A stretch of 63,752 bases of DNA, the filler included, from an uncultured Methanosarcinales archaeon (lineage in GTDB: Archaea; Nanobdellota; Nanobdellia; Woesearchaeales; CAYMBN01), in NCBI GenBank assembly GCA_964388715.1. It is 6 parts of 4 records of this genome, joined end to end, with 100 filler letters (N's around TTAATTAATTAA, not from the genome) between each part and the next. Parts side by side here need not be neighbours in the genome. Positions count along the whole stretch, not along the records: positions 7,869 to 39,258 come from CAYMBN010000004.1; 5 more parts are not named here. One strand, 5' to 3'. A program made the position numbers and the translations under genes. Each line of letters starts with the position of its first letter. The stretch's first letter is position 1. Shown piece after piece: positions 7,769 to 62,019 of this stretch. The notes under the pieces were generated by a model. The model worked only from the letters and a program-made list of their open reading frames with translations, did not search any database and was not told the origin of the DNA.

Positions 7769-7868
7769 NNNNNNNNNNNNNNNNNNNNNNNNNNNNNNNN
7801 NNNNNNNNNNNNTTAATTAATTAANNNNNNNNNNNNNNNNNNNNNNNNNNNNNNNNNNNNNNNNNNNN
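7769..7868. other. Artificial contig spacer
   Basis: N44-TTAATTAATTAA-N44, stops in all six frames. Confidence 0.97.
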
Positions 7869-8387: not shown

Positions 8388-11300
8388 ATGAAACTTAAAA
8401 AAATAATATGGATCTTTGTATTACTTTCTTTAATACTTAATTGTGCTGCTTTAACAATCCAAACATCTACACCAACAATTAAAGTATATTATGATGAAGA
8501 AGTTATTATTATCAACAAAAACCTAACAAATGATCTTAATAATGAAAGCTATGCACTATCACAAACAACACAAGATAACAAAACATTTGAATTTACCCCA
8601 ATATATGCTTTATCAAATGGAAATCATACATTTAAATTAGAAGCAAAAGATATTTTTGGTAATATAGCAGATGAGTACATATTAAAATTTACAATAAATG
8701 CACCATTCATAAACATAAAACTACACCAACCTAAGTTTGGTGTTTCAGATCACTTACCTTTTGACGTTATAATTAACACATCTCAGATTGCAATATGTAA
8801 ATATGCAATTAATCCTAATTATCTCTACAGTGAAATGATTTTTTTTACACAAACAAATAATTACACTCACAAAATATCAAACTTTAATATCCGTGAATCA
8901 AAACTTTATATTAAATGTAAAGATGAACTTAACAGAATAAACGAAAATCAACCAGTTATTTTTGACATTAGTTATGATAACACAGCCCCAAAACTCACAC
9001 CTATTTTTGATCCAAATCCTATAATTGAACTCATTGATGATAGAGCTAGAACAAACCTAACACTAACAACAGATGATTTTGCCATATGTAAATATTCAAC
9101 ACAAAACATAAATTATTCTTCTATGGGTAGTAAGTTTGACAACTGGAACCCTTACAAACAAGAAAATTTTGTTAAAACACATTCTAAAGAATTTGATTTT
9201 TCCAATGATACAAAAAATTATGATTATTATTTTACATGTGAAAACTTAGCAGGACTTGTTTCTAATCCTGTTAAAAAAACACTTACAGTAAACACACAAA
9301 TTGGTTTAACCATTAAAGTTAACACACCTTCACCTACAAAAGAAACAAATATTACTTTAGATATTTCAACAAACAAAAGATCAAAATGTTCCTTTACTTT
9401 TAATAGTACTGAAACATTATTTCCAACTACACTAGCAAAACAACATTCTATTAACATTGGAACTTTTACAGCAGGATCACACAAATTTAACATAACCTGT
9501 TCTTCTGCAGGAGAAAAAGTTACTAAAGATTTTACACTTGTTATTGATTTAAGTGAACCTTCAAAAGTTATTTTTGATGAAGATTTAAAAGATTATACTT
9601 GTGAAAGATCAAACAATAGATGGAGAGTTAGAGCAGAATTTTCTGCTCAAGACAACGAATCAGGTATAGGTGCTTTCAACTATTCACTTTACCAAGGAAA
9701 TAATCTTATTTTTGGTTGGATAACAGCAACTGCACGTGGAGATAATACTTATGAAGCAGAAGTTGAAACAAACAATAATGGTGACGACTTAAACTTAACT
9801 CCAGGTAAAAAATATCATTTTAGAGCAATTGCAATGAATAAAGTAGGAATCTGGAATAGAGATATAGAAGAAAGTAGAGACATAACAGCTCTTGACAAAT
9901 TAGATGATAAATGCAGAGATACTAATCCTCCTGAAACATCAATAACAACAAAAAAAATAACAAATGGAGTAAATATAACAATTAATTGTTATGATAGAAA
10001 TCCTGGTTGTGATGATTCAGAAAGAACTTATGGGAGTAATCTTGTTCAAGGTTTATGTAGTGAAACAAGAGAATATCATGATCGCCCAATTACACTAATT
10101 GAATCAACTTACTTTTGTTGGAGAGTTTGTGACACTGTTAACAATTGTAAAACCGAAATTCAATATGTTGATGTAAACGCAATGTTAAATGATGCAGATA
10201 ATGATGGTATTGCAGATGATTCTGACAATTGTGCAAACACTCCAAGTGATGAAGTTGCTGTTAAAAATGGTTGTTCGTGCTCACAACTAGATGAAGATAA
10301 GGACAATGTTAACAATTGCAAAGATGAATGTCCAAGAACCCCTTTAGCTGAGACAGACAAAGTTAATAACAAAGGTTGTGCACCTTCAGAAAGAGATTCA
10401 GATGGTGATGGTATGCCTGATAATTGGGAAAAATTATATGATCTTGATCCATATGACCCAAATGATCGTGATGAAGACCTTGATAATGATGGTTCTACTA
10501 ATTATGAAGAATACCGTGAAGGAACAGATCCAACAGATCCAAACTCAACACCAGCTATTGATTCTGATAGTGATGGTATTGTAGATAATAAAGATAAATG
10601 TCCAAACACACCTTTTGACGAACTAGCAAATGAAGATGGTTGTTCAGTATCACAAGTAGATACTGACCAAGATGGAATACCTGATGTTTGGGAAACACAA
10701 AATAATCTTGACCCAAATAATCCAGAAGATGCATACTTTGATAATGATGGTGAAGGACTTCTTAATATAGAAGAATATCAATATTCAACAAATCCTAATA
10801 ATGAAGATACAGATGGGGACAAATTTGATGATAAAAGAGAAATTGATGCAGGTACAGATCCAAATGATCCCAATTCAAAACCCGAAGGAGGAAGCATTTT
10901 ATCCGGTATTGTTTCAGTTTTAGGCACATTATCAATATTAGGTGGAGGAGGTTATTTGGGTTATGAAAAATATTTTGGAAAGAAAAAAGTATTAATGACT
11001 TCACCCACTACTAAAAAAACAATAATACCTCAACAAATAATTAAAAGAACTACAATCAAAAAACCATTACAATCAAAAACAAAAACCAGACAAAGACCAT
11101 TACAATTGTTAAAAAGAAAAAAATTAACCAAAGAAAAGAAAGTTACAGAAAGGTCAAAATTATTTGATGTATTTGGTAAAACATCACCTTCAAAAAAACT
11201 AAAAATAACACAAACAAAGAAACCAATCCTCAAAAGAATAACAAAACCAACCAAAAAATTAAATAAAATTAAAAACATTTTTGTTAGGCCAGCACAGAAA

Positions 11301-11393
11301 AAACAAAAAGACATTTTTGACAGATTACCTGGAAAAAATGTTAAAGATGAATTTAAAAAATTATCCAAATTAAATAAAAAAAATAAAAAATGA
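8388..11393 (+). CDS. Large membrane-anchored surface protein: Ig-like domains, thrombospondin type-3-like Ca-binding repeats, C-terminal TM and basic tail
   Basis: Signal peptide; repeated DxDxDG..D..DxCPxTP and DGMPDxWE units; TM near aa 840-862; Lys-rich tail. Confidence 0.85.
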   Translation: MKLKKIIWIFVLLSLILNCAALTIQTSTPTIKVYYDEEVIIINKNLTNDLNNESYALSQTTQDNKTFEFTPIYALSNGNHTFKLEAKDIFGNIADEYILKFTINAPFINIKLHQPKFGVSDHLPFDVIINTSQIAICKYAINPNYLYSEMIFFTQTNNYTHKISNFNIRESKLYIKCKDELNRINENQPVIFDISYDNTAPKLTPIFDPNPIIELIDDRARTNLTLTTDDFAICKYSTQNINYSSMGSKFDNWNPYKQENFVKTHSKEFDFSNDTKNYDYYFTCENLAGLVSNPVKKTLTVNTQIGLTIKVNTPSPTKETNITLDISTNKRSKCSFTFNSTETLFPTTLAKQHSINIGTFTAGSHKFNITCSSAGEKVTKDFTLVIDLSEPSKVIFDEDLKDYTCERSNNRWRVRAEFSAQDNESGIGAFNYSLYQGNNLIFGWITATARGDNTYEAEVETNNNGDDLNLTPGKKYHFRAIAMNKVGIWNRDIEESRDITALDKLDDKCRDTNPPETSITTKKITNGVNITINCYDRNPGCDDSERTYGSNLVQGLCSETREYHDRPITLIESTYFCWRVCDTVNNCKTEIQYVDVNAMLNDADNDGIADDSDNCANTPSDEVAVKNGCSCSQLDEDKDNVNNCKDECPRTPLAETDKVNNKGCAPSERDSDGDGMPDNWEKLYDLDPYDPNDRDEDLDNDGSTNYEEYREGTDPTDPNSTPAIDSDSDGIVDNKDKCPNTPFDELANEDGCSVSQVDTDQDGIPDVWETQNNLDPNNPEDAYFDNDGEGLLNIEEYQYSTNPNNEDTDGDKFDDKREIDAGTDPNDPNSKPEGGSILSGIVSVLGTLSILGGGGYLGYEKYFGKKKVLMTSPTTKKTIIPQQIIKRTTIKKPLQSKTKTRQRPLQLLKRKKLTKEKKVTERSKLFDVFGKTSPSKKLKITQTKKPILKRITKPTKKLNKIKNIFVRPAQKKQKDIFDRLPGKNVKDEFKKLSKLNKKNKK

Positions 11394-11884
11394 AATATCA
11401 AAAAAAAGCACAAATGGTAAGCCAAATTTTTATTTATATTATGGGCCTTATTGTAGTTGGATTCATAATATTATATGGTTATAATGCAATAAAAGGTTTT
11501 TATTCACAAGCAGAACAAGTAACTTTAATAGAATTTACAACAAAACTTCAATCAAACATTGAAAAGATTTCAAGCACAATTAATAAAGAAGAATTAACAT
11601 TAAACCCACCTAAATTGTATGATCAACTTTGTTTTGTTGATATTGAAAATGTTAACTCTGATTCCATTTCCCACCCACTAATTAAAAATAGTGTTAAGGA
11701 TAATGTAAGCATGAACATCTTTTTGATGGGAAAAGAAAGATTTAAACCAATATTTATTCACAAAAACAATCGACCACTAATAAAATTGGAATCACCTTAT
11801 TTTGATTGCACAAATATTTCTCATGACAAAATCACTTTACAGTTAGAAGGAGTTGGAAATGGTGCAAAGATTTCTTTCAAATAA
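11390..11884 (+). CDS. Class III signal peptide (pilin-like) protein
   Basis: KKA/QMVSQ followed by a hydrophobic helix. Confidence 0.8.
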   Translation: MKYQKKAQMVSQIFIYIMGLIVVGFIILYGYNAIKGFYSQAEQVTLIEFTTKLQSNIEKISSTINKEELTLNPPKLYDQLCFVDIENVNSDSISHPLIKNSVKDNVSMNIFLMGKERFKPIFIHKNNRPLIKLESPYFDCTNISHDKITLQLEGVGNGAKISFK

Positions 11885-12854
11885 AAAGGCAGTAATTGAA
11901 ATACAAGCAAGTTGGATATTTATATTAATTGCAGGTGTGGTCATTCTCTTATTTTTTACAGGTATAACTAAATTTCAAAGAACTTCTTCAGAATTTGGTT
12001 TAGAAGCAGACGTATTTAACAAATTTGACTTAATTTTATCAGGTTTAGAATCAAGCGTTAAAACAAGTAATGTAATAAATCTACCTAAATCAGGATTAAT
12101 CTTCGAATGTGATAAATTTAAGTTTTCTGATTCAAACATTGAAGGGAAAAGCTACAAAAATGCAATTGTGTTTGGCCCAGACAAATTAACATCGCTAAAA
12201 TTTATTACGTGGACAGAAACCTGGGAATTACCTTACAAAATATCAAATTTCCTTTACATTATTGATTCAGGTATAAAATATTTATTCATTTATGATAACC
12301 TTTATTATGACAAAGCTTTTGATTTATATGAAAACATTCCAGATTTTGTTAACAAAGAAATTAACTTAACCCCTGGATTAAAACAAGAAAACACTTTTTA
12401 TGTCTTTGTCACAGAACAAGAACCAAATTTTGTTCAATATAATTATTCAATTTGGATCAAACCATTAGGAGATTTTCATGGTGAAGTTAATTTTCCAGAT
12501 GGAAACCAAACTCATTATCTTGGAGATGCTACATTATATGGTGCAATTTTCTCAAATAATTACAAAAAATATAATTGTATAATCAAAAAAGCTTTTGAAA
12601 ATTATATTTATATTACAGATATTTTTCTAAAAAGAACAGAATATTTGATAAATAATGTTAATGAAGATTGTAAACAATATTACCAAACAGATCATCTTAG
12701 AGCAATACTTGATGAAACAAAAAACTGTAACAAGAATTTTCCCGATTTGTATAATTGTGATATTGAAAGAATCAAACTCAATGTAAACCGTTTAGGAGGA
12801 ATAACTGGTGACAATAACCTTTTACAACAATGGTCTTGTCCATTAATTTATTAA
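11859..12854 (+). CDS. Class III signal peptide (pilin-like) protein
   Basis: NKKA/VIEIQ followed by a hydrophobic helix; start overlaps the previous gene. Confidence 0.75.
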   Translation: MVQRFLSNKKAVIEIQASWIFILIAGVVILLFFTGITKFQRTSSEFGLEADVFNKFDLILSGLESSVKTSNVINLPKSGLIFECDKFKFSDSNIEGKSYKNAIVFGPDKLTSLKFITWTETWELPYKISNFLYIIDSGIKYLFIYDNLYYDKAFDLYENIPDFVNKEINLTPGLKQENTFYVFVTEQEPNFVQYNYSIWIKPLGDFHGEVNFPDGNQTHYLGDATLYGAIFSNNYKKYNCIIKKAFENYIYITDIFLKRTEYLINNVNEDCKQYYQTDHLRAILDETKNCNKNFPDLYNCDIERIKLNVNRLGGITGDNNLLQQWSCPLIY

Positions 12855-12855
12855 A

Positions 12856-13350
12856 ATGAAACGCAAAGCACAAGTTAAGATGGGAGAAAACATTGCAATA
12901 CTCTTCATTTTCCTAATTTTAATTGTATTTGGTTTAGTTTTTTATATGAAAGTACAAAAAACAACTTATACACAAAAAGTTGATGAATCATTTAGTGAAG
13001 ATGTTATTAAGATTAGCCAAATCATTTCCATGCTACCAGAAACAAGATGCCCAACAGACATAATTGGTATTGAAAATTGTATTGACTTAATAAAATTAAA
13101 TATCACAAGCAACTTGATCAATCAAGATACCTCAACAAGATTACATTATTTTGACAAATTTAAGTATAGCAAAATTCAACTTACCTCAGTATATCCTCTT
13201 TATGGAGTTAACATAACTTTTTATAATTATCCTAACAAAGAAAATCAAGAAGAATTACAATATCATTATGTTCCAATACCTGTTTTATCATATGATGCTA
13301 TAACAAGTAATTACATATTTTCAATATTAGAGGTGTTTGTTTACAAATGA
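12856..13350 (+). CDS. Class III signal peptide (pilin-like) protein
   Basis: MKRKA/QVKMGE followed by a hydrophobic helix. Confidence 0.8.
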   Translation: MKRKAQVKMGENIAILFIFLILIVFGLVFYMKVQKTTYTQKVDESFSEDVIKISQIISMLPETRCPTDIIGIENCIDLIKLNITSNLINQDTSTRLHYFDKFKYSKIQLTSVYPLYGVNITFYNYPNKENQEELQYHYVPIPVLSYDAITSNYIFSILEVFVYK

Positions 13351-13826
13351 AACGAAAGGCACAAACAGAAATAATGGGTTTAGCAGTAATAGTACTTTTA
13401 CTTGCTTTAGGAATGTTATTCATTGTAAAATTTGTTTTATTAAGACCAGAATCAACAACAGAACAAGAATTTGTACATTCACAATTAGCAGGAAAAATAT
13501 TAAATTCCTTAATAAAAACAACTTCTGACTGTAATAATGCACCATTAGCAGATGTTATCCAAAATTGTGTTGAAGGATTTCCAAATGGTGACATGTATTG
13601 CTTTAACACAGAAGAATATTCATGTAATTTCATTAACCAAACAATAAAATACATCCTCAAAGAAACACTTGATAAATGGAAAACAGATTACACTTTAACA
13701 ATCTCAGTTCAAAATCAAACCTTTTTCAAGTTTTCAGACTGTACAAGTCCTAATACAAAATCAGCAATTCAACCTATTAACACAGCCCTAGGTGACCTAA
13801 TCTTAAGATTAAACATTTGTAATTAG
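13347..13826 (+). CDS. Class III signal peptide (pilin-like) protein
   Basis: MKRKA/QTEIMG followed by a hydrophobic helix; ATGA overlap. Confidence 0.8.
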   Translation: MKRKAQTEIMGLAVIVLLLALGMLFIVKFVLLRPESTTEQEFVHSQLAGKILNSLIKTTSDCNNAPLADVIQNCVEGFPNGDMYCFNTEEYSCNFINQTIKYILKETLDKWKTDYTLTISVQNQTFFKFSDCTSPNTKSAIQPINTALGDLILRLNICN

Positions 13827-13864
13827 TAAACTTTTAATAACAAGCTCATATAATACACATTAAA

Positions 13865-13978
13865 ATGAAACCAAACAAAAAGGCCATAGGAACAATGTAC
13901 ATTGTGATAATCATTGTAGTTATCATAATCTTTTTTATACTATTCAAAATAATGTCAAACATAATACCAAAACCATGA
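13865..13978 (+). CDS. 37-aa minimal pilin-like peptide (not in ORF track)
   Basis: MKPNKKA/IGTMYIVIIIVVIIIFFILFKIMSNIIPKP*; stop overlaps the next start (ATGA). Confidence 0.7.
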   Translation: MKPNKKAIGTMYIVIIIVVIIIFFILFKIMSNIIPKP

Positions 13979-14895
13979 AACTAAACAAAAGAGCAGTTGG
14001 TGCACAAAACTTAACAATGATTATAATAGCATTAATTGCAGCAGGATTCTTTATATGGATTGTTTCTGATAAAATTGTTCCTTATTTAACAGAATCAGGT
14101 GGTACAGGAGCATGCTTATCTTCTGTTATACTTAGAGACCAAAGTCGAGGTTTCACACATATAAGTAGTCTTGAATGCGAAACAGAATTTATTAACCATG
14201 AATCCTTCCTAAAAAAATCAAAAATAGACAAAAACCATGAACCAGAAATAAAAATCAACAAAACCAAAGTATTCTTAGCAGATCAAATGTCAAACTGTTG
14301 GTATCAATTTGGAGAAGGACAATACGAACCTTTCCACGGCTACAAAACACAAGAAAAAGTGGGTTGTTTTGTTTGTTCTAAATTTACTATCCCAAACAAA
14401 GAATTTTATGAATCCAATGATAGAAAAATTATAGAAAAAAATGATTTTATAAATTTCCTTGATACATACTCAAAACCAACAATGGACAAAACCTATTACC
14501 AATTCCTCAAAAAGGCATTATATAATCAAGAAAACCCTTTTATACTTGGGATAGTAGAGGATGTAAAAACAAAAAAATTATATTCTCAAGATGAAAGAAG
14601 TTATGTCCCTCCAGGAACTGTTTTGATTATTGACGCAATCAAATTTTATTTTATCGACGAAGAAGAAAAACCAGGTTATGTTTTTTTTGAACCTGTTCTA
14701 CTTGAAGGAGAAGAATACTCTGTAATCTTCTGGCAACTTACTGACAACTATTTATCACAAGCTTTTGACAATGGTTTATTAAGCAATTTATTTAGTAGTA
14801 AATCAGAAGTTGAAAAAGTAGATAATCCTACACTTGTTATGGTAGTTCCTTATGAAAATGTTCAAAGTTTGGGGTGTGACACATTACAAGGTTAA
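13975..14895 (+). CDS. Class III signal peptide (pilin-like) protein
   Basis: NKRA/VGAQ; LADQMSNCWYQFGEG..CFVCS motif shared with the next gene. Confidence 0.8.
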   Translation: MKLNKRAVGAQNLTMIIIALIAAGFFIWIVSDKIVPYLTESGGTGACLSSVILRDQSRGFTHISSLECETEFINHESFLKKSKIDKNHEPEIKINKTKVFLADQMSNCWYQFGEGQYEPFHGYKTQEKVGCFVCSKFTIPNKEFYESNDRKIIEKNDFINFLDTYSKPTMDKTYYQFLKKALYNQENPFILGIVEDVKTKKLYSQDERSYVPPGTVLIIDAIKFYFIDEEEKPGYVFFEPVLLEGEEYSVIFWQLTDNYLSQAFDNGLLSNLFSSKSEVEKVDNPTLVMVVPYENVQSLGCDTLQG

Positions 14896-14924
14896 AAAAA
14901 AAGTCTTTAGCTACAATATTATTA

Positions 14925-15845
14925 ATGATGATTATACTTGGATTAATAATACTTATTTTCTTATCCTTCTTTGTTAAAGATGTTGGTGATTACATTGGTG
15001 GTATTGGTGATGATGAAAAATGCAGAGCAAGTGTTATTGCAAATGCAAAAACTAAAACAGGCCTTGTTGAAACAGGTTTAAGTGGTTTCACAAAACCATG
15101 GGGTTCAGAAACAAGAGAAATTGAATGTCCAACAAAACAAATTACAATAAAAAATCAAGAAATTGAAAAACAAGATGATATCAAAAAGATTCTTGCAAAT
15201 GAAATGTATTCTTGTTGGTGGAAATTTGGTGAAGGAAAACTCAATGCTTTTAGTGATTGGAAAACAGAAAATGTTTGTGCAATCTGTTCAATAGTTAGTT
15301 TTGATGAAAAAACAAAGGAAGAATATCCAAAAATAAATAAAATGAGTAAATATCTCGTCGAGAAAAAAATTCCTTTCAAAGAAAAAACTTATCATCAATA
15401 TTTCACAGGCAAATCCATAACAGATGAATCAATGCTAAATGAATTAATTGATAAAGAAAAACCAATAATAACTCAAATACCTTATTCAACAATCTTTGTG
15501 ATCACAAAACAAAACACTGCAAGTGAATTTTATAAATCAATTGGCATTACTAGCACCACAGGTGCTGTTGGCACAGGACTAGCTGCAGTAGGTGGAATAA
15601 TTTTATTAAACCTAATACCTGGTGTAAACATAGCAGCAACAACAGCTATTGCAGCTGGTGGAATTGGTTTTGGAACTGGTGCATTAACAGGAGGTTCTAT
15701 TGGTTCTTACATTGCGACAGAACACAAAGATCAATACTCTGCAGCAATTTATTTAGTACCTTATGAATTTGCAGATTTAAATGCAAAATGTAATTCACTT
15801 GGTCAAGATCCTTTTAAAGAAGAACGTGAAGAGGTGTTATCATGA
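14925..15845 (+). CDS. Pilin-like protein with a glycine-rich hydrophobic insertion; true start uncertain
   Basis: In-frame KKKS/LATILL lies upstream of the first ATG; LANEMYSCWWKFGEG..CAICS motif. Confidence 0.75.
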   Translation: MMIILGLIILIFLSFFVKDVGDYIGGIGDDEKCRASVIANAKTKTGLVETGLSGFTKPWGSETREIECPTKQITIKNQEIEKQDDIKKILANEMYSCWWKFGEGKLNAFSDWKTENVCAICSIVSFDEKTKEEYPKINKMSKYLVEKKIPFKEKTYHQYFTGKSITDESMLNELIDKEKPIITQIPYSTIFVITKQNTASEFYKSIGITSTTGAVGTGLAAVGGIILLNLIPGVNIAATTAIAAGGIGFGTGALTGGSIGSYIATEHKDQYSAAIYLVPYEFADLNAKCNSLGQDPFKEEREEVLS

Positions 15846-16000
15846 ATAAAAAAGGTTTTGAACTTGGCTGGCACTTTATTGGTTTATTAATCCTAGCAGT
15901 AGTATTAATGTTAATATTAATTTGGGTAATTAAATCATTAGGTGGAGAAAGTACAAGTCTTTTTGAAAAATTCAAAAACATAGTTTCTTTTGGAAAATGA
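15842..16000 (+). CDS. 52-aa pilin-like peptide (not in ORF track)
   Basis: MNKKG/FELGWHFIGLLILAVVLMLILIWVIK...FGK*; ATGA overlaps at both ends. Confidence 0.78.
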   Translation: MNKKGFELGWHFIGLLILAVVLMLILIWVIKSLGGESTSLFEKFKNIVSFGK

Positions 16001-18180
16001 ATAAAAAAGCAATTGCATGGAATGTTATAATAGTGGCAGTTTTCGTCGTTATAATCATTTTTGTAATACCTACAGCTTTATATGGTAACATACCCAAATT
16101 AATCAAAGGAGGAATTCCTTCCACTGAAATCAGAGACCAACAAACAAACATTGTCCCTTTTGATTTCTCAAACTTCGTAACCAACATTGAAACATGTAAA
16201 TACTCTGATGAAAAAGAATGCCTATGTCCAATAACATCATTTGCAAGATTTCCAATCAATAGAAGAATCTTTATCAAACAAGAAGACGGAATCTTTTTTT
16301 CATACTTAAAAACAAACATAAAACTAATGGAAAACACTGTTTGGTTTGAAGATCAAAATTCAATAAATTATTATTTTATACCACAAGCAAGATTTATAGG
16401 TAGTGTTTTCAAAGAAAAAAAAGGCTTTTTCTCACGTTTATTTAACCCAAACAATGAAAAAGACTTATTAGGAATAAGTTTATTCAAACCAGTTGACATA
16501 AAATACCAAGATCCTAAAATAGATTTTGAAGGAATAAAAACTCAAGTAGTATACTTGCCTCATGAAGAAGAAACAAAAAGTGGTGTTCCACAAGAAGTAA
16601 CTCAAAAATCAGCATTTTTATCATCAACACCATCAACCTACTCAGGATTAATTTACAAAAAAGATCAAGAAACCTATGTAATCCTCAATGATGATATATT
16701 AAAAGAAAAATACAGTAATTCTAAAACATGTGATATTCAATCAGGACTCAAACAAGCAATAGTTCAATTCAATGAATTTTACAATCAATACAATACTTGT
16801 GAAAACCAATTCGAACAAAACTGTTTATGCTCTCAATCAAAAATCCAATTACCAGAAGATTATAATATTCAAATTAAAGCAGGCAAAGAATATACTTATA
16901 GTGAAATCTCTCTTATTTACAAAGACACAAACATATTCACAAAACCATTAGAATTCCTATCAAACAAAGAAACCACATTTACACTCAAACCAAACAATTA
17001 CTTAATAAACCAAGATGGAAGAGTCCTAATAACAGAATTAAATCATAATTACTTCTCCTGTGATATAACATCACAAGACAAATATAATTACCTTGTTGAA
17101 AAATTCAAAAACTTTGAAAACACTAATTTTAATGATCAAGAAATCTGCATTGTTGACACACTTAATTTAGAAAACATTCAAGGAAATTTTGTTGCATACA
17201 ACTTAGCAGGTGAACCAAAAAAATTTAATTTAATATACACAGATGATGATTTCACAGGAGGACCAACAGATATTAACGGTGAATTATGTATTCTTGTAAA
17301 AATTAATAATCAATTTATCCCAAATCCTGTTACAAATAAATTTTACATAAATCAATATGAACCAGATGGTATGGGTGGATCACAATTAAAACAACTTGCA
17401 CAAGCAAGTGCAAAATTAGGAGATGATGATGGAAGCATTTATTACCAACTAAGCAAACACGCAAGATTATATTACATCCCTTCTGAAAAAGCAGTTTGTT
17501 TTGACCCAATTAACATCAAAGCAACACATGATAAATCATCACTAGAAATTGCAGGAGAAGAGGTCAAACCTTGTGAAGAACCAATAACTTCAGTAATTGC
17601 AGAATTAAACACTAAAAACATAATATTAAACAAAGTTTGTGAAAATAACCTCAACCAAGACCCAATGCCTGGTTTATTACTTGCTTTAACACAACAAGAA
17701 AGCAGTTTCAAACACTGTTGCCAAACCAAAAACAAGAACACAGATTATACATGTACCCATTCTGACAACACTATCTGTGACAAAGATCACATATTAACAA
17801 ATTATGATGAAGATGATAATCCTGTTGCAATTGGAATCATGCAAATTAATGTTAACCAACACATAGAAAGAATCAAAAGAATATGTGGATCCCTAAACCA
17901 AATTTATGATTTAAACTGTAACATCTTAGTTGGAATTGATATACTCAAAGAAAAATATGAAACATACAAAGATGGTATTGACTCAGAACTTGTTGATAAA
18001 TATTGTGAAATTCCAGCTCATGCAAAAACATACAAAACTTATGATGGTTGGAATGCTGCCTTAAGGGGCTACAATGGCCTAGATTGTGATACAGAAGGTG
18101 CTGATGTTGATTATGTTGAAACAATAAATAAAATTTATACAGATAGCTACAAAGACTCCAAATGTCCACAACCAACCTAA
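15997..18180 (+). CDS. Pilin-like protein with a C-terminal lytic transglycosylase (SLT/lysozyme-like) domain
   Basis: MNKKA/IAW signal; ALTQQESSF, GIMQIN, NILVGIDIL, AALRGYNG and YVETI motifs. Confidence 0.8.
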   Translation: MNKKAIAWNVIIVAVFVVIIIFVIPTALYGNIPKLIKGGIPSTEIRDQQTNIVPFDFSNFVTNIETCKYSDEKECLCPITSFARFPINRRIFIKQEDGIFFSYLKTNIKLMENTVWFEDQNSINYYFIPQARFIGSVFKEKKGFFSRLFNPNNEKDLLGISLFKPVDIKYQDPKIDFEGIKTQVVYLPHEEETKSGVPQEVTQKSAFLSSTPSTYSGLIYKKDQETYVILNDDILKEKYSNSKTCDIQSGLKQAIVQFNEFYNQYNTCENQFEQNCLCSQSKIQLPEDYNIQIKAGKEYTYSEISLIYKDTNIFTKPLEFLSNKETTFTLKPNNYLINQDGRVLITELNHNYFSCDITSQDKYNYLVEKFKNFENTNFNDQEICIVDTLNLENIQGNFVAYNLAGEPKKFNLIYTDDDFTGGPTDINGELCILVKINNQFIPNPVTNKFYINQYEPDGMGGSQLKQLAQASAKLGDDDGSIYYQLSKHARLYYIPSEKAVCFDPINIKATHDKSSLEIAGEEVKPCEEPITSVIAELNTKNIILNKVCENNLNQDPMPGLLLALTQQESSFKHCCQTKNKNTDYTCTHSDNTICDKDHILTNYDEDDNPVAIGIMQINVNQHIERIKRICGSLNQIYDLNCNILVGIDILKEKYETYKDGIDSELVDKYCEIPAHAKTYKTYDGWNAALRGYNGLDCDTEGADVDYVETINKIYTDSYKDSKCPQPT

Positions 18181-18267
18181 ACAGCTTAAACATTTGAAAT
18201 TTCCAAAACATTTATATATAATAGAGCATATAAATTCAATATTAATATTCAAAACGAGGTGAATCAT

Positions 18268-18543
18268 ATGAACAAAAAAGCACAAGGAATTTCTCTTAAT
18301 GTCATTATTATAGCTGCTGTAGCACTAATCGTTCTGGTTATATTAGTAGCTATCTTTACAGGCAGAATGGGTATATTTACAAAAGATATTGGTACTGCAA
18401 CTGAAGGTGCAAAATGTTCTGGTAAAGTTATGACACCAGGAGAATGTGATGCAGCAAAAGGTGAACAATTATTAGGTAATTTTAATGATGTTGATGCAGG
18501 ATTAGTTTGTTGTAAAACAGCAGAAACAACAGAAGGTGAATAA
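18268..18543 (+). CDS. Candidate major pilin
   Basis: MNKKA/QGISLNVIIIAAVALIVL; upstream TATA-like TTTATATA near 18211, SD GAGGTGA, T-rich tract after the stop. Confidence 0.8.
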   Translation: MNKKAQGISLNVIIIAAVALIVLVILVAIFTGRMGIFTKDIGTATEGAKCSGKVMTPGECDAAKGEQLLGNFNDVDAGLVCCKTAETTEGE

Positions 18544-18615
18544 TCTCTTTTTCTTTCTTTTTTCAATAATCTTTAAATACTAGCTTATCCTATTTTTTAC
18601 AAAAGGGTGATATTT

Positions 18616-18921
18616 ATGAATAAGAAAGGCTTTGAAATGACTTTCAGTGCAATTATATACGCTGCTTTAGCACTTATTATTTTAACTGTGGTAATTCTTA
18701 TTTTCACAGGTCAAATGACCAAGATTTCAGGTATATTTAGTCAGAAAACAGACGAACTTAGTGACCAATCTAACAGAATGACATTAATAAGTGGAGATTG
18801 TTCTGTTGACAAAAATGGTGAATGTTGTCTAGAAAACGATGAAAGAGAACAGTTTTCAACACCAATAAATGGATGGAAAGATTGTAATGAACAAAAACCA
18901 ATGTGTTGCCAAAAAAGCTAA
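18616..18921 (+). CDS. Small pilin-like protein, paralogue of the previous gene
   Basis: MNKKG/FEMTF..ALIILTVVILIFTG; C-terminal CC; SD GGGTGA. Confidence 0.8.
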   Translation: MNKKGFEMTFSAIIYAALALIILTVVILIFTGQMTKISGIFSQKTDELSDQSNRMTLISGDCSVDKNGECCLENDEREQFSTPINGWKDCNEQKPMCCQKS

Positions 18922-19330
18922 CACTAATTATATGATAATGTTTGTTGTAGGCCTTATCCTATTAATCATAATAGCAATACCAATGTACGGCTTTATTGCA
19001 CGTTTATTTAACATATTTTCTGATAACCCAGATCAAGCAACAATAGGTTCATTTGATAACCTTATTGAAGAAATTGAAAACATAATAAAAGAAGACACCA
19101 ACCAAAAAACAATCCCTTACTACATCAAACCAGGCATACAATTAAACAAATGTAGTGAAGAAGTACTTTGTTTATGTGAAGATGAAAACTGCGAAACAAC
19201 AATAAAAGAATCTGAAGTATTCCAAGGCTTCGTATTCATCATCAAAGACCAAATTATCTTTGAAAAAGATGAAGTAAAAAACATTAAACTCGAGAAAAAC
19301 GCCAATACAATTAGTATCAGTTGGCCGTAA
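18869..19330 (+). CDS. Class III signal peptide (pilin-like) protein
   Basis: AKKA/NTNY followed by a hydrophobic helix; CLC motif; start uncertain. Confidence 0.72.
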   Translation: MDGKIVMNKNQCVAKKANTNYMIMFVVGLILLIIIAIPMYGFIARLFNIFSDNPDQATIGSFDNLIEEIENIIKEDTNQKTIPYYIKPGIQLNKCSEEVLCLCEDENCETTIKESEVFQGFVFIIKDQIIFEKDEVKNIKLEKNANTISISWP

Positions 19331-19362
19331 ATTATATAAACCAATAAACTAATTCTTAGAGT

Positions 19363-20193
19363 ATGTTAAAAAAAAGAGGAACATCAGAAATACAAGAACA
19401 ACTTTTCTTTGTTTTTGAACTACTTCTAGTCCTTTTTGTAGGTTTTGCACTATTTCGTTATGTAAACACAATTGTTGAAAATCAATTATTTGAAGCAGAA
19501 TACCTCACAAGAGACACAGCACTTTTAATGAACACAATGTCAGGAATAAACTCAAACGTTTTTTTTAATTTCCTTTCAAAAAAAGATCTTAACCTTGAAT
19601 TCAACACTGTTTTAACAAACAATGTGATAATCACACTTAACAACAAAAAATTCAAACAATATGGGATAGACATAACATTTCCATTTGCAACAAACCAAAA
19701 CCACATTTACAATTTAAAAAACCCAGGCAAATTCAAAAACACAATACATTTCATAAAACAAGGCAACAATTTCATAGTTAGTGAAAAAACAGGTGGAAAA
19801 ACCAAATCATATTACTATGAAAATGTAAAAACATCAAATATACCAAAAAAGATTAATCTTAAATGTGCATCAGAAATAGAATCATTCTGTAACAATCTAA
19901 AACAATATTCAGAATCAAGAAACCTTGGCATAGAATTCACAACAAAGGACTCAGACATTTATCTCACAATAAGCAAAAACACAAAAAACAAAGCAACCAT
20001 TGTCAAAAATAAAGAAAGCAGAAAGTTTGCATCACTCATCTTTAATAATCTAAACAAAGATAGCATAATCATTGTAGATTCAAGCCAACTCGATGCTTTA
20101 GTTATAATTAATCTTGAACTTACAGAAGAACTAATTAACCATCCTTCAACACTTGAAGCTTTCAAAAACACAATAGAGGAATTTTTCAAATGA
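19363..20193 (+). CDS. Pilin-like protein with a possible degenerate Amidase_3-like C-terminal domain
   Basis: KKRG/TSEIQE signal; DIYLTIS..ESRKFASLIFNNL..IINLEL..AFKNTIEEFF pattern. Confidence 0.65.
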   Translation: MLKKRGTSEIQEQLFFVFELLLVLFVGFALFRYVNTIVENQLFEAEYLTRDTALLMNTMSGINSNVFFNFLSKKDLNLEFNTVLTNNVIITLNNKKFKQYGIDITFPFATNQNHIYNLKNPGKFKNTIHFIKQGNNFIVSEKTGGKTKSYYYENVKTSNIPKKINLKCASEIESFCNNLKQYSESRNLGIEFTTKDSDIYLTISKNTKNKATIVKNKESRKFASLIFNNLNKDSIIIVDSSQLDALVIINLELTEELINHPSTLEAFKNTIEEFFK

Positions 20194-20879
20194 AACGCAA
20201 GGCACAACTATTATCATACAACCTTTTATCCTATACCTGGAGGATGATTTTTTTAGTTGTGGCTGTATTTACCATAATTTACCTAATCAAATTCTTTACT
20301 AATGTACATGTTGAAACACATGAACTAAGACCATACATATTTTCAAACAACATTGTAAACAGCCTGTCATATTATGATCCGGAAATAAATCGTTTTTATA
20401 AAGGCATACTTGATCCTAACAAAATAAACCAAATTGAAAATTTAATATATTATGGTGAAGAAAACAATGTAATCTGCGCCAATATAAGTCTGTTTGATGA
20501 AAACCAAAACCTTCTCTCAGAATTCTTTTACAATAAGAAAAAATACGATCAATGGAAACCATTAACCTGGAGTGAAGATTATTTTAGTGAAAAATTCCAA
20601 TTCATGATAATTGTAAAAGATTTTGATCAATTAGTAAAACAAGAAAAACAAAGAATCACTAACAAAAACATTGAATTAAACAAACAAATCAACGAAATTC
20701 AAAAAGCATTAGCAATAGCAGGACAAACAGGATCAATACTAGAACAAACAAGATTAACTCAAACAATACCTATATTAGAAATGAGAAAACAAAGAAATAA
20801 TCAAAGATTAGAATTACTCCAAAAAACAAAAGATCCTGTAATGCACATGATAATAGATGTTGTAACACCAAGAGGCTAA
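20190..20879 (+). CDS. Pilin-like protein with a coiled-coil insertion
   Basis: MKRKA/QLLSY; Q/K-rich helical segment near the C-terminus. Confidence 0.78.
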   Translation: MKRKAQLLSYNLLSYTWRMIFLVVAVFTIIYLIKFFTNVHVETHELRPYIFSNNIVNSLSYYDPEINRFYKGILDPNKINQIENLIYYGEENNVICANISLFDENQNLLSEFFYNKKKYDQWKPLTWSEDYFSEKFQFMIIVKDFDQLVKQEKQRITNKNIELNKQINEIQKALAIAGQTGSILEQTRLTQTIPILEMRKQRNNQRLELLQKTKDPVMHMIIDVVTPRG

Positions 20880-20882
20880 AAA

Positions 20883-21407
20883 ATGAATAAGAAAGCTTTT
20901 TTAACAAGCGCAATCATTGATTATTTTGCATATTTAGCATTTGCTTTAGTTATAGTAACTTTCTTTTTTGTTTTTAATCATGCATCAAAGAACATTGAAG
21001 CACAAGTTACAGAATTAAAAGTGGATATTGAAAATGGACAATATTTAGTTACACTCCTCAATAAACCAATCACTATAAACAATCATGATTACACAATAGC
21101 AGAATTGATAGTTAACTCTTTTTATGATAACACAAACAATTTATTACTAAAACAAGAAGCAATCAAAATATTAAAAAGCATTCCTCCTCCACAAGAAACT
21201 ACTGGGGGATGGAACCTTGATATTTTCTTTATGCCACAAGAAAAATTATTTTGGTCTATTCCAAGTTTTACCAGTACACAAACCATCAAAATAAAATCAC
21301 ATCATAATTATGTAATACTTCCTTTAAGGGAGCCTAAAGCTTATCTCAAACTAGACCTTAATTTTGAAACACACAAACCATATGAATTAATAAGGACTAT
21401 AACATGA
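20883..21407 (+). CDS. Class III signal peptide (pilin-like) protein
   Basis: MNKKA/FLTS followed by a hydrophobic helix. Confidence 0.78.
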   Translation: MNKKAFLTSAIIDYFAYLAFALVIVTFFFVFNHASKNIEAQVTELKVDIENGQYLVTLLNKPITINNHDYTIAELIVNSFYDNTNNLLLKQEAIKILKSIPPPQETTGGWNLDIFFMPQEKLFWSIPSFTSTQTIKIKSHHNYVILPLREPKAYLKLDLNFETHKPYELIRTIT

Positions 21408-22885
21408 AACTAAAAAACAATAAAAAAGCAGCAATGTTATTCTCAATACTAATAGTCTTTGTAACCTTCTTTGTACTTCTTTATGCATATATACAACTTA
21501 CAGACAAATACAATGATTTTGATCAAAAAATTGGCTTAAGACAACTCTCATTACTAAAAGCAGAAGCAGATAAAGAATTATCATTAATTTACAATGATCT
21601 TATTGCAAAACACGCAATAAAAAAATCATACCTAGGTCTTAACAACAACGGAGGACTTTTCAACAAAGATTGTGGTGAAGTATATGGTTACAGCCTATGG
21701 AACAACAAAGAAAAAGAATGTTACCCAAATACACAAACAGAATTGCCACTTTTTATTCAATCTAATTTATCAACTGATTATGAAATCACAATAGGTCAAA
21801 ACATAAAAGGTTTTTCATACAATTTCCTAGAACAGAACATTTATTGCACACAACAGGGCTTTAACAAATATTGGGGTTGGACATTTCAACCAGATCAAGA
21901 CTTTATGTGTGGAAAACTTACATACAAACATAATTTTAAACTTCCTCTCAAAAAAGACCTATCTGCTTACAATGATTTAATTGACAAATCCAAAGAATTG
22001 ATCCAAAAATGCCAGATAGAAAGTGATGTACAAGGTTGTGTTAACAAAATTTCCAAAGAGAACAATTGGCAACTAGTTCAATTAGAAGAAAATACTAATA
22101 ATCACTTTGCTTTTAATTACAATAACATTAAATTTGCACTTTTTATCCCAGATAAAGTACCTCCTTCTGAAACACAATTTATTTCTGTTAGTGATAACAA
22201 AGTAACAGAAGGATCTGTTTTAATCAACTTCAAACCAAATCCAGAAACAGACATAAAACATTATAACATTTATTATGAAAAAAGTCCATTGATTATACTT
22301 AAATCAATTGTACCAAGTCAAGTAAAAAACAAAAAAACAATAAATCAATTTGATTATACATATAATGATTATACACATAACAAAGAAAATCTTTACAAAT
22401 TCTCCACAGAAGAAGAATCTACTTTCAAAAGATTTGAACCAGGCAAATTATACTATTTTACTCCAACTGAAAAAGATTCCTACTACATATATGTTCTAAA
22501 CAACCTAGAAGATAATAAAAACCATCTTTTTGCTATGACTGCTACTGATTACAGTGGAAATGAAAGAATCACTGCAAAAATTAAATATGGTTCATCTATT
22601 GATGACCTCTATGCAGAACCTATTCAAGAGATTGAAGTAACACCTATCTCAGATCAAATCCAACTTACTTGGAAAATGCCTGAAAAAAATATTGATGGAA
22701 CAGAATTTGATGATTTCAGTCACTATAACATTTACTGTTTAGAAAACAACGTTATGACAGAATCAACACCTATAACAACAACACAAGAAACAATTACCAC
22801 AAATAAATGCAACTATTACACTATAACAGCAATAGATCAAACAGGAAATGAGAATAAAAACTTTAACTTTGTTGAATCTTCTTAA
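21404..22885 (+). CDS. Pilin-like protein with C-terminal fibronectin type III-like domains
   Basis: NKKA/AMLF; DIKHYNIYY, AMTATDYSGNE, LTWKMP..HYNIY..ITAIDQTGNE. Confidence 0.78.
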   Translation: MKLKNNKKAAMLFSILIVFVTFFVLLYAYIQLTDKYNDFDQKIGLRQLSLLKAEADKELSLIYNDLIAKHAIKKSYLGLNNNGGLFNKDCGEVYGYSLWNNKEKECYPNTQTELPLFIQSNLSTDYEITIGQNIKGFSYNFLEQNIYCTQQGFNKYWGWTFQPDQDFMCGKLTYKHNFKLPLKKDLSAYNDLIDKSKELIQKCQIESDVQGCVNKISKENNWQLVQLEENTNNHFAFNYNNIKFALFIPDKVPPSETQFISVSDNKVTEGSVLINFKPNPETDIKHYNIYYEKSPLIILKSIVPSQVKNKKTINQFDYTYNDYTHNKENLYKFSTEEESTFKRFEPGKLYYFTPTEKDSYYIYVLNNLEDNKNHLFAMTATDYSGNERITAKIKYGSSIDDLYAEPIQEIEVTPISDQIQLTWKMPEKNIDGTEFDDFSHYNIYCLENNVMTESTPITTTQETITTNKCNYYTITAIDQTGNENKNFNFVESS

Positions 22886-39258: not shown

Positions 39259-39358
39259 NNNNNNNNNNNNNNNNNNNNNNNNNNNNNNNNNNNNNNNNNN
39301 NNTTAATTAATTAANNNNNNNNNNNNNNNNNNNNNNNNNNNNNNNNNNNNNNNNNNNN
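39259..39358. other. Artificial contig spacer
   Basis: N-TTAATTAATTAA-N. Confidence 0.97.
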
Positions 39359-47741: not shown

Positions 47742-47841
47742 NNNNNNNNNNNNNNNNNNNNNNNNNNNNNNNNNNNNNNNNNNNNTTAATTAATTAANNN
47801 NNNNNNNNNNNNNNNNNNNNNNNNNNNNNNNNNNNNNNNNN
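47742..47841. other. Artificial contig spacer
   Basis: N-TTAATTAATTAA-N. Confidence 0.97.
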
Positions 47842-51274: not shown

Positions 51275-51374
51275 NNNNNNNNNNNNNNNNNNNNNNNNNN
51301 NNNNNNNNNNNNNNNNNNTTAATTAATTAANNNNNNNNNNNNNNNNNNNNNNNNNNNNNNNNNNNNNNNNNNNN
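51275..51374. other. Artificial contig spacer
   Basis: N-TTAATTAATTAA-N. Confidence 0.97.
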
Positions 51375-59600: not shown

Positions 59601-60386
59601 TTATATTAATTTTGAAAGGTTTTTTATATCTTTATTTGCAACATGTGTGTAAATTTGGGTTGTTCTTAGGTTTTTGTGGCCAAGAAGTTTTTGTATATGT
59701 CTTATGTCTGCACCTGCTTCAAGCAGATGAGTTGCAAATGAATGTCTTAAAGTATGTGGAGTAACTTTTTTTTCTATTCCTGCTTTTTTAGCAGTATTTT
59801 TAACAATACTTTGTATTGTACGTTTATTATATTTTTTTGAAAAATTTGAAACAAAAATTAATCCTTGTTTTTTAGGTTTTAATATATTGATAAAATCTTT
59901 TAATCTTGAATGAAGAAACAGGACTCGATCTCTACTACCTTTTGTAACCTTAAGATGTATAATCTCTCTTTCAAAATCAATATCTTGCCATTTTAGGTTG
60001 ATTAGTTCATTAAGTCTTATGCCAGTGTAATAAAGGAACATAATAATCAACCTATGTTTTAGATTGTTTACAGACTCAAACATTCTGTTGATTTCTTCTC
60101 TACTTAATACAATAGGAAGTTTTTCATTGTTTTTTGCTAGAGGAATTTCTTGATTAAAATTTTGTTTAAGAACTTTTTCATGAAAAAATTTTAATGCAAA
60201 ATAAACAGAGCGCATACTTGACCTGCTTTTATTAGTATAACTTAAAAGAAACTCTCTAGGACTTTTTTTTAATACTAAGTATTTTTTTATTACACTAATA
60301 TATGCTTTTTTAGTTTGTTTAGAATATCTTCTTAAATTAAGTTCTTCAGACAATTTTTTAAGATACAACTTGTTTTCTTCTTCCAT
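59601..60386 (-). CDS. Tyrosine recombinase (Xer/IntI-like, lacking the IntI insertion)
   Basis: [21 protein letters not shown] and TTQIY catalytic set; IntI-like RRYSxxTxxAY and LPIVLS; only 56 aa between KGSRDR and HTLRH. Confidence 0.93.
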
Positions 60387-61919: not shown

Positions 61920-62019
61920 NNNNNNNNNNNNNNNNNNNNNNNNNNNNNNNNNNNNNNNNNNNNTTAATTAATTAANNNNNNNNNNNNNNNNNNNNNNNNN
62001 NNNNNNNNNNNNNNNNNNN
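61920..62019. other. Artificial contig spacer
   Basis: N-TTAATTAATTAA-N. Confidence 0.97.

Follow-up and report, generated by a model that had tools for sequence, protein, structure and literature searches.

The window analysed here, a stretch of 63,752 nucleotides (63.7 kb), belongs to an uncultured archaeon assigned to the Woesearchaeales (NCBI GenBank assembly GCA_964388715.1). One of its genes, P0001, encodes a protein of 727 aa in which a class III-like leader and a hydrophobic helix are followed by an orphan middle region and a C-terminal GH23/SLT domain. The gene belongs to a series of 14 consecutive ORFs on one strand whose N-termini are class III-like. The features are as follows.

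11390..22885, + strand: pilin-like cluster of 14 same-strand ORFs that contains the gene, from class III-like N-termini
15997..18180, + strand: whole gene, P0001 (727 aa)
15997..16011, + strand: short, basic leader MNKKA, residues 1 to 5, from the sequence and class III criteria
16012..16083, + strand: hydrophobic H-domain (alpha-1-like helix), residues 6 to 29, from the AlphaFold2 helix and hydropathy
16084..17556, + strand: Cys-containing middle region, residues 30 to 520, with neither detectable relatives nor a confident fold
17557..18177, + strand: GH23/SLT lysozyme-like domain as modelled, residues 521 to 727, from Pfam, AlphaFold2, Foldseek, and profile matches
17662-18027, + strand: Pfam SLT core, residues 556 to 677
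17698..17700, + strand: gaa codon of Glu568, predicted to be the catalytic acid within ES, from conservation and profile alignment to the RQES of Slt70
17713..17826, + strand: Cys-rich insert HCC..C..C after ES and before GxMQ, residues 573 to 610, from the sequence and alignment
17833..17844, + strand: GIMQ motif, residues 613 to 616, from the alignment of relatives
18067..18078, + strand: GYNG motif, residues 691 to 694, followed by Y706-V707-E708, from the alignment of relatives

Both the gene and the domain are native in composition, the GC content being 0.322 in the domain, 0.299 in the gene, and 0.294 in the window.

The protein begins with MNKK-A|IAWNVIIVAVFVVIIIFVI, where a prepilin peptidase would be expected to cleave after Ala5 (Lys at -2, Ala at -1) and about 24 hydrophobic residues follow. 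In the full-length AlphaFold2 model, residues 2 to 29 are helical with pLDDT values of 75 to 93, and the mean hydropathy of the H-domain is 3.62. Archaeal class III signals are described in part of PMC4371748 as having a charged residue at -2, Gly, Ala, or Ser at -1, and then an H-domain of about 20 residues, the UpsA site (KA|IS) being an example. The initial annotation had called this a class III signal protein. What stands of that claim is the agreement with the -2/-1 rule and the H-domain; the Pfam pilin and class III models, on the other hand, have no match. Searches of this protein and its neighbours found none of these models at an E value of ≤1 in Pfam or of ≤0.1 in NCBIfam.

Residues 30 to 520 remain an orphan region, for which neither relatives nor a confident fold could be detected. 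A search with residues 26 to 530 yielded no relatives at E ≤ 0.01 among 5686 candidates, and the best score for the middle region in the Atlas search was 0.78, under the lead level. The full-length AlphaFold2 model has a mean pLDDT of 51.1, with residues 31 to 291 and 347 to 525 below 50. When the whole protein was used in a word-indexed homologue search, the single match was obtained via the C-terminal domain only.

It had also been proposed that the ORF ends in an SLT domain, with four motifs in the SLT order and a catalytic Glu codon at 17698 to 17700, and our analysis agrees on all of these points. The Pfam SLT family (PF01464) matches residues 556 to 677 at 33.6 bits, where the gathering cut-off is 21.3, and with an E value of 3.1e-8. 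QQESS (residues 566 to 570), GIMQI (613 to 617), NILVG (642 to 646), and GYNG..YV (691 to 694 and 706 to 707) follow one another in that order, and the codon in question, gaa, specifies Glu568. The motif scheme of Blackburn and Clarke (2001) for family 1 enzymes is said to run, in order, ES, GxMQ, (A/G)YNxG, and a trailing Tyr. A search of 1.84 billion representatives yielded 190 relatives at E ≤ 1e-3, and 52 of these also reach E ≤ 1e-10. Glu occupies the Glu568 column in 100 of the 101 relatives that cover it, and Ser occupies the Ser569 column in 92 of 101. Conservation is similarly high in the GxMQ columns (G in 143/146, M in 132/152, and Q in 145/152) and the YNG columns (Y in 150/150, N in 138/150, and G in 149/150), while Tyr706 is shared by 118 of 137 relatives. 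The Glu708 column holds Glu in 106 and Asp in 18 of 137 relatives, and this residue is a candidate for a second catalytic acid of the kind present in hydrolases. The first position of GYNG is Gly instead of the Ala of A-Y-N-x-G, as it is in 47 of 150 relatives.

Although phmmer with residues 521 to 727 found no match among PDB sequences at E ≤ 1, the family profile matched Slt70 at an E value of 2.9e-10, with the family ES aligned on the RQES of Slt70; counted along this alignment, the residue opposite Glu568 is Glu478. The same profile also matches MltC, EtgA (E value of 3.8e-6), MltE, and a phage tape-measure protein. Two further matches are uninformative, namely IagB, the best NCBIfam match (16.2 bits, far under its cut-off of 208 bits), and the PHROGs family phrog_19890, which is of unknown function (E value of 1.9e-4).

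With 43 relatives in the alignment, AlphaFold2 modelled residues 521 to 727 at a pLDDT of 94.6 and a pTM of 0.89. A helix spans residues 558 to 569 in the full-length model, with E568-S569 at its end. The lysozyme-like fold, which had been named as a check on the assignment, was recovered by Foldseek, the nearest structures being MltF, MltC, MltE, and goose lysozyme, with weak E values: all the top PDB matches listed are GH23 proteins (prob 0.77 to 0.99, TMq 0.37 to 0.49, best E value of 0.027), and none reaches E ≤ 1e-3. Against BFVD, the best E value is likewise weak (1.3e-3), and the best viral fold matches are GH23 lytic transglycosylases or goose-type lysozymes. The sequence profiles and the structural model together confirm the prediction that the C terminus is a true SLT/GH23 domain whose catalytic motifs are intact. 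The earlier term “muramidase” is loose, as the motifs belong to lytic transglycosylases, which cleave MurNAc-GlcNAc non-hydrolytically to 1,6-anhydroMurNAc products, and the enzyme may be either a transglycosylase or a hydrolase.

The Cys-rich insert (HCC..C..C, residues 573 to 610) pointed out in the initial annotation is real and is common to a subgroup of the relatives. Cys574 is conserved in 88/99, Cys575 in 57/99, Cys586 in 68/97, and Cys594 in 83/108 relatives, and the alignment shows eight conserved Cys residues in the domain. A maximum-likelihood tree of the domain (24 of 80 rows after a coverage filter) leaves the position of the window's protein unresolved, with 9 of the 21 inner branches open, and therefore neither a donor nor an order of architectures is claimed.

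The view of the carrier as pilin-like is strengthened by its setting among 13 other pilin-like ORFs. The N-termini in this cluster follow the pattern [NQKA][KR]K[AG]| and continue into a hydrophobic helix. Eleven of the 14 cluster ORFs pass our class III rule, compared with 6 of the 63 other window ORFs of at least 90 aa; the rule is home-made, lets through some giant proteins with Sec-type signals, and fails to recognise L001. Neither Pfam nor tblastn (E ≤ 0.01) detected a pilus ATPase, a platform protein, or an A24 prepilin peptidase in the window.

An 8-row alignment of domain relatives was used to retrieve 79 related loci, of which 75 are labelled Archaea, mostly Woesearchaeota, Nanobdellota, or Pacearchaeota. 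They include giant homologues of 1,888 to 3,188 aa with Sec-like signals. The N-terminus is complete in 60 homologues; the class III rule is passed by 21 of them, 13 of which are 243 to 606 aa long. Further same-strand pilin-like ORFs accompany 17 of the 18 loci with short forms, and the density of such ORFs is 2.6 per 10 kb in short-form loci versus 0.71 in the other 61. Synteny with the window extends to an RPA gene in 14 loci and a RadA gene in 11, which identifies these related loci as the same locus as the window's. Pilus-type operons at related loci contain homologues of members of the window cluster, and there the equivalent cluster has genes for a PilB-type ATPase, a 9-TM protein, and an A24 prepilin peptidase on its flanks. 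By tblastn, homologues of the T2SSE (PilB-type) ATPase were found in 9 of the 79 loci, of the 9-TM protein (725 aa) in 11, and of the A24 peptidase in 13, one A24 gene being that at 11537-12379 of L067. Because the 9-TM protein matches Pfam T2SSF only below threshold, in two of eight proteins (E values of 0.005 and 0.067), the designation “PilC-like” is based on position and topology.

Other modules are found on sister carriers in these syntenic loci. Peptidase_M23 occurs on a pilin-like protein of L050 (7712-8722), L043 and L065 have it within their SLT proteins, and Amidase_2 occurs on proteins of L077 (7053-8138) and L058 (2369-3355). The N-termini are class III-like, by eye or by rule, in L050, L077, L058, and L043, and that of L065 passes the rule. 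One carrier family exists bare (about 176 to 180 aa), with Amidase_2 (L077), or with SLT (L031 and L038). The known substrates of Amidase_2 (N-acetylmuramoyl-L-alanine amidase) and Peptidase_M23 both lie in murein. Peptidoglycan had been put forward as the target from the SLT domain, and this proposal gains support from the sister pilin-like proteins, whose Peptidase_M23 or Amidase_2 modules point to murein.

From the sequence, the gene context, and the models, we consider it somewhat probable that the protein is a modular prepilin-type surface protein, presented on a pilus or on the cell surface, with which a Woesearchaeota-like DPANN archaeon cleaves the glycan of bacterial murein. An A24 prepilin peptidase would remove the basic leader MNKKA, and the hydrophobic helix would then either anchor the protein in the membrane or enter the body or tip of a filament, which may be a type IV pilus-like structure or a pseudopilus formed from the 13 neighbouring pilin-like proteins. 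The orphan region of about 490 residues may act as a stalk. The GH23 domain, probably stabilised by disulfides, would cut the MurNAc-GlcNAc linkage of bacterial peptidoglycan via Glu568. We assume that murein synthesis is absent from this archaeon; as it is not expected to make murein, the substrate would have to be foreign, presumably a bacterial cell wall at the site of contact, whether that of a host, a prey, or a competitor. The sole Mur-ligase-like gene in the window (49275-50471) is FolC and does not concern murein synthesis. In related genomes, sister carriers encoded by the operon would contribute an amidase and an M23 endopeptidase; between them, the three enzymes would act on all of murein's glycan, stem-peptide link, and cross-link.

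The protein might instead be a membrane-anchored or bindosome-like ectoenzyme that never enters a filament, its class III-like N-terminus serving as the anchor while the domain cuts murein at cell-cell contacts. This is a possibility to be taken seriously, though we think it rather unlikely. The window lacks detectable pilus machinery, no pilin fold could be recognised in the low-confidence part of the full-length model (residues 31 to 291 and 347 to 525, pLDDT below 50), which says nothing either way about a pilin module, and 727 aa far exceeds the typical size of a pilin. Archaeal class III signals also serve non-filament proteins, and the bindosome sugar-binding proteins are cited as an example in part of PMC4371748. 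However, 13 other pilin-like ORFs surround the gene, and its positional equivalents in relatives lie between the ATPase/platform genes and the A24 peptidase gene. Moreover, in bacteria, large modular pilins are predicted to be displayed at filament tips, according to part of PMC8179133.

It is improbable that the GH23 domain acts on a glycan other than murein (chitin-like, another beta-1,4-GlcNAc polymer, or an envelope polysaccharide of an archaeal host), in which case it would say nothing about bacterial hosts. The GH23 fold includes the Ralstonia A-471 chitinase (3w6b), which is among our fold matches with a TMq of 0.49, comparable to the lytic transglycosylases, and the fold therefore leaves the substrate unfixed. 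The family is also divergent, with just 33.6 bits in Pfam and a unique Cys-rich insert beside the catalytic Glu. Nevertheless, the best sequence-profile matches are murein transglycosylases, and both Amidase_2 and Peptidase_M23 are found on sister carriers of this type of operon. A non-catalytic adhesin module that binds glycan strands and attaches the cell to its partner, a binding or attachment role being named as possible in part of Castelle et al. 2021 (PMC8204110), is very improbable given the catalytic Glu in 100 of 101 relatives and the nearly invariant ES, GxMQ, and YNG motifs, the pattern expected from purifying selection on catalysis.

The proposed murein-cleaving surface protein can be compared with several known systems. 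It shares fold class and motif order with the family 1 lytic transglycosylases (PF01464, GH23: Slt70, MltC, MltE, and MltF). Whereas these are periplasmic lipoproteins or soluble enzymes, the domain is here attached to a class III-type carrier in an archaeon presumed to have no murein, has low sequence similarity to them, and has a Cys-rich insert after ES. EtgA/IagB of the T3SS likewise tie an SLT domain genetically to a surface filament or secretion machine; VirB1 of the T4SS and BfpH of the bundle-forming pilus are other machine-associated specialised lytic transglycosylases. These enzymes are separate and soluble and open the producer's own sacculus, whereas here the enzyme is fused to its carrier and the producer would have no sacculus. 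Virion lytic transglycosylases of phages (PRD1 P27380 and tape-measure/tail lysins) also place GH23 on an extracellular penetration device directed at a foreign wall, but they are viral structural proteins, while the present gene is chromosomal and lies in a conserved cellular locus adjoining RPA and RadA.

Few DPANN archaea have been cultured, and for most the partners are not known; GH23 genes have been the main genomic argument that some Woesearchaeota and Pacearchaeota live on bacteria rather than on archaea. Both the presence of GH23 in DPANN and the idea of a bacterial host are already published. As the initial annotation stated, such domains have been noted in DPANN genomes before, in parts of PMC8204110, PMC9723730, and PMC11537232; the literature on them includes Castelle 2021 and Vigneron et al. 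2022, with Rinke 2013 and Castelle 2015 cited for earlier mentions. The large murein-like transglycosylases of fam00969 (Castelle 2021, in part) are homologous GH23 proteins from the same lineages, for which the same inference of a bacterial wall was drawn, but they reach about 3,000 aa and are of the Sec type, in contrast to the 727-aa class III-like protein within a pilin-like cluster described here. Modular type IV pilins, such as PilB of S. sanguinis with its vWA module, likewise combine a class III signal, a helix, and a grafted module (Raynaud et al. 2021, in part), with tip display predicted by the authors (part of PMC8179133). They differ in being bacterial and mainly adhesive and in having IPR012902-type pilin modules, whereas the pilin module here is putative; the word “transglycosylase” does not occur in the main text of PMC8179133. 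In the literature consulted, we found no description of a pilin carrier or a pilus-operon context for DPANN GH23.

The gene context fits the published idea of such archaea attacking or feeding on bacteria. Prepilin-type carriers, a conserved pilus-type operon, and alternative amidase or M23 modules make what was a loose hint into a mechanism that can be tested part by part: the leader cleavage site, the catalytic Glu568, and the operon. If true, archaea would possess a surface machine dedicated to attacking a polymer specific to bacteria, and the “modular pilin” principle would reach archaea and enzymes.

A bolder extension, which we offer tentatively and regard as more doubtful than the surface protein itself, is a chromosomal wall-drilling pilus or pseudopilus that is conserved in Woesearchaeota/Pacearchaeota for cross-domain episymbiosis or predation, with the window's 727-aa protein as its GH23 member. 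Such an apparatus may consist of the ATPase, the 9-TM platform, about 5 to 14 pilin-like proteins, and the A24 peptidase, encoded beside RPA and RadA, and its carriers may bear interchangeable modules (a GH23 glycan cleaver, an M23 endopeptidase, or Amidase_2). Uptake of bacterial DNA or nucleotides might be a further role of the apparatus, given that genes for a single-stranded-DNA-binding protein and a recombinase are its conserved neighbours.

The SLT-domain gene and its motifs are as follows.

15997-18180, + strand, SLT-domain gene, ORF of 727 amino acids (aa)
Residues 566-570, + strand, QQESS motif, with the Glu568 codon gaa at 17698-17700
Residues 613-617, GIMQI motif
Residues 642-646, NILVG motif
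Residues 691-694, GYNG motif, followed by Y706-V707

As the initial annotation stated, all of these motifs are present in the SLT order. Pfam SLT (PF01464) matches residues 556-677 (E value, 3.1e-8) with 33.6 bits; because this score exceeds the curated cutoff of 21.3, the signal is beyond chance, and the SLT domain is confirmed. Its composition is native (GC content, 0.322 versus 0.294 for the window). In a scan of 1.84 billion representative proteins, residues 521-727 have 190 relatives at an E value of ≤1e-3, 52 of them at ≤1e-10 and none at ≤1e-30. In a local profile alignment of 152 sequences (same residue/sequences covering the column), the conserved positions include Glu568 (100/101), Ser569 (92/101), Gly613 (143/146), Gln616 (145/152), Asn642 (147/154), Tyr692 (150/150), Asn693 (138/150), and Gly694 (149/150); Glu708 is also conserved. 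The Cys-rich insert noted earlier (HCC..C..C, residues 573-610) follows the catalytic Glu, and eight Cys residues are kept across the family (e.g., Cys697 in 144/150 and Cys670 in 125/151), which would fit a disulfide-stabilized extracellular domain.

An AlphaFold2 model of the domain, built from a 44-row alignment of its relatives, has a mean pLDDT of 94.6 and a pTM of 0.89. The top Foldseek matches in the PDB are GH23 proteins only (MltF, goose-type lysozyme, MltC, MltE, Slt, and a Ralstonia GH23 chitinase), though their scores are modest (best E value, 0.027, with no match at ≤1e-3; TMq, 0.37 to 0.49). Among viral models, the best matches are LT_GEWL/SLT virion proteins, including the PRD1 transglycosylase (best E value, 1.3e-3). 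A profile of the same alignment finds Slt70 first (E value, 2.9e-10), with the ES motif of the family aligned to RQES of Slt70, followed by MltC, EtgA, MltE, a phage tape-measure protein, and g-type lysozymes. The domain is thereby shown to have a GH23 fold, and its catalytic motifs are complete and conserved.

SLT-type domains had been noted in DPANN archaea before, and three papers bear this out: GH23 or “murein-like lytic transglycosylase” proteins of Woese- and Pacearchaeota were reported by Castelle et al. 2021 (PMC8204110), with Rinke 2013 and Castelle 2015 given as earlier sources, and the same theme appears in Vigneron et al. 2022 (PMC9723730) and PMC11537232. Attachment to or attack on bacteria is already proposed there. 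Modular pilins have been described for bacteria (PMC8179133). In the main texts of the open literature, we saw neither pilin-type carriers nor a pilus-operon context described for DPANN GH23 enzymes; the papers listed for DPANN together with type IV pili, peptidoglycan, and a bacterial host all concern CPR bacteria or other topics, as judged from titles and the openings of abstracts, and a census of archaeal type IV pili (PMC4858521) mentions neither transglycosylase, lysozyme, nor DPANN.

The N terminus of the 727-aa protein, MNKKA followed by a hydrophobic helix (residues 2-29 in AlphaFold2), fits the archaeal class III pattern, as was originally proposed; in PMC4371748, this pattern requires a charge at −2 and G, A, or S at −1, e.g., KA↓IS in UpsA. 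The gene lies in a cluster of 14 consecutive ORFs (11390-22885, + strand), 11 of which pass a home-made class III N-terminus rule and carry an [NQKA][KR]K[AG] site; the N termini of the other three are alike by eye. Elsewhere in the window, 6 of 63 ORFs of at least 90 aa pass the same rule. Curated pilin models in Pfam and NCBIfam do not match the 727-aa protein, and a pilin globular module is unproven because residues 30-520 have no detectable relatives in homologue searches and no confident AlphaFold2 fold. Two tandem paralogue pairs occur in the cluster (13975-14895/14925-15845, 28% identity; 18259-18543/18607-18921, 35% identity). Immediately upstream, a 1,001-aa protein (8388-11393, + strand) with a Sec-like signal, 23 Cys residues, an Ig-like domain (Big_13, subthreshold), Asp-rich thrombospondin-type-3-like repeats (weak NCBIfam matches), a C-terminal hydrophobic segment, and a Lys-rich tail is probably an adhesin.

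A scan with one genome per species gave 79 related loci (L numbers), 75 of them labeled Archaea. In tblastn searches with window proteins, genes for RPA (14 loci), RadA (11 loci), and YdjM (5 loci) lie downstream of the SLT cluster, and cluster homologues of the 306-aa tandem pair (10 loci for 13975-14895 and 15 for 14925-15845) and of the 493-aa protein (21404-22885; 6 loci) were found; this gene content shows that the window and related loci are the same locus. Machinery was surveyed first with Pfam in 14 loci, where 50 of the 117 large ORFs were covered, and then by tblastn over all 79 loci. The cluster is flanked by a T2SSE-type ATPase in 9 loci, by a Peptidase_A24 prepilin peptidase in 13, and in 11 by a protein of 725 aa and about nine hydrophobic stretches (9-TM), which resembles T2SSF in only two of eight proteins (E values, 0.005 to 0.067). 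In relatives, the 9-TM gene is followed by one for a conserved protein of about 290 aa, to which the 306-aa pair is homologous. The order in L067 (1022-15825), on one strand, is ATPase, 9-TM, three pilin-like genes, SLT, one pilin-like gene, A24, RPA, YdjM, and RadA; such one-strand operons recur in other Woese- and Pacearchaeota loci (L064, L055, L031, L077, and L020). The pilin-like cluster that holds the 727-aa gene thus belongs, in relatives, to a pilus-type operon. The ssDNA-binding protein and recombinase genes, adjacent to this operon at long range, recall competence regulons, but their adjacency may equally be mere inherited synteny.

The SLT proteins of the related loci show three architectures: giants of about 1,900 to 3,200 aa, which have Sec-like signals and are the form known from the literature; proteins of about 750 to 1,500 aa with charged N termini; and short proteins (243 to 606 aa) with class III-like N termini. 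The home-made rule, which also passes some Sec-type giants and misses the Woesearchaeota contig L001, is passed by 21 of 60 SLT proteins with complete N termini, 13 of the 21 being short forms. Further same-strand pilin-like ORFs surround the SLT gene in 17 of 18 short-form loci (65 in 253 kb, versus 61 in 858 kb for other loci). In ten loci (L002, L004, L005, L011, L013, L015, L016, L032, L060, and L073), the SLT protein has about 750 to 1,250 aa and a charged N terminus, and its gene comes after that of a conserved protein of about 385 to 420 aa with a class III-like N terminus (..KA↓QSGMNAAVLVAII..). Nine loci (including L005, L006, L015, and L060) have an eRF1-like gene upstream on the opposite strand, with 27 to 29% identity to the window eRF1 in the four loci listed. 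This arrangement seems to represent another system, distinct from the first.

Other murein hydrolase modules co-occur in related clusters, as assigned from domain matches. On proteins with class III-like N termini, Peptidase_M23 is found in L050 (7712-8722) and, together with SLT in single proteins, in L043 (8216-12055) and L065 (5112-6932), and Amidase_2 in L077 (7053-8138) and L058 (2369-3355); L073 (7127-10864) also counts among these carriers or SLT fusions. The L077 amidase carrier family is bare (about 176 to 180 aa) in seven loci and bears SLT in L031 and L038, and in L043 and L076 a homologue of the 493-aa protein has SLT inserted into it; the enzymatic modules have thus been grafted onto more than one carrier of a single apparatus. 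The known substrates of the three enzyme families are the murein glycan, the MurNAc-peptide bond, and the peptide cross-link, so murein is the most economical candidate target.

The initial annotation read the 727-aa protein as a filament-displayed muramidase. This reading is partly supported: the GH23 domain, the class III-like N terminus, the pilin-like cluster, and the M23/Amidase_2 modules of related clusters strengthen it, whereas the window has no tblastn homologue of the ATPase, 9-TM protein, or A24 peptidase. We infer a scheme in which the leader would be cut after Ala5 and the protein presented by a filament or pseudopilus, either on it or at its tip, and not simply anchored in the membrane; its GH23 domain would cleave bacterial peptidoglycan and may be deployed against a bacterial host, prey, or competitor.

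Genes for RadA, aIF5A, eRF1, an S2 of archaeal type, and an OB-fold protein of RPA type are present in the window, with identities of 66% (RadA), 63% (S2), and 48% (RPA) to L001, a contig of a Candidatus Woesearchaeota metagenome-assembled genome. The source organism is a Woesearchaeota-like DPANN archaeon. No tRNA or Rfam match was found in the window. Murein synthesis can be dismissed for the single Mur-ligase-like gene of the window, which is FolC. Two Cys-rich proteins have almost no Pfam signal (26310-28880, − strand, 856 aa, 50 Cys, N terminus KKRG followed by a hydrophobic stretch; 61968-63749, − strand, 593 aa, 32 Cys). A tyrosine recombinase (59601-60386, − strand; Phage_integrase family; E value, 2e-44) lies close to the window end, and Pfam gave no match for its neighbors (61126-61563 and 61968-63749). 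The filler positions 7769-7868, 39259-39358, 47742-47841, 51275-51374, and 61920-62019 each hold 12 readable bases between two 44-base N runs, mostly at gene ends, and look like masked stretches.

Among the related loci, L036 is labeled Patescibacteria, and L003 and L008 are labeled Omnitrophica WOR_2. L036 encodes homologues of archaeal RPA and RadA, and L003 encodes one of RPA; the pilin-like genes of L008 resemble those of the window; all three appear to be archaeal contigs, mislabeled or misbinned. Six other loci are labeled Methanosarcinales and one (L052) “bacterium.” In a Nanoarchaeota metagenome-assembled genome (L037, 7814-10258), the RadA gene contains an intein bearing a LAGLIDADG endonuclease domain.
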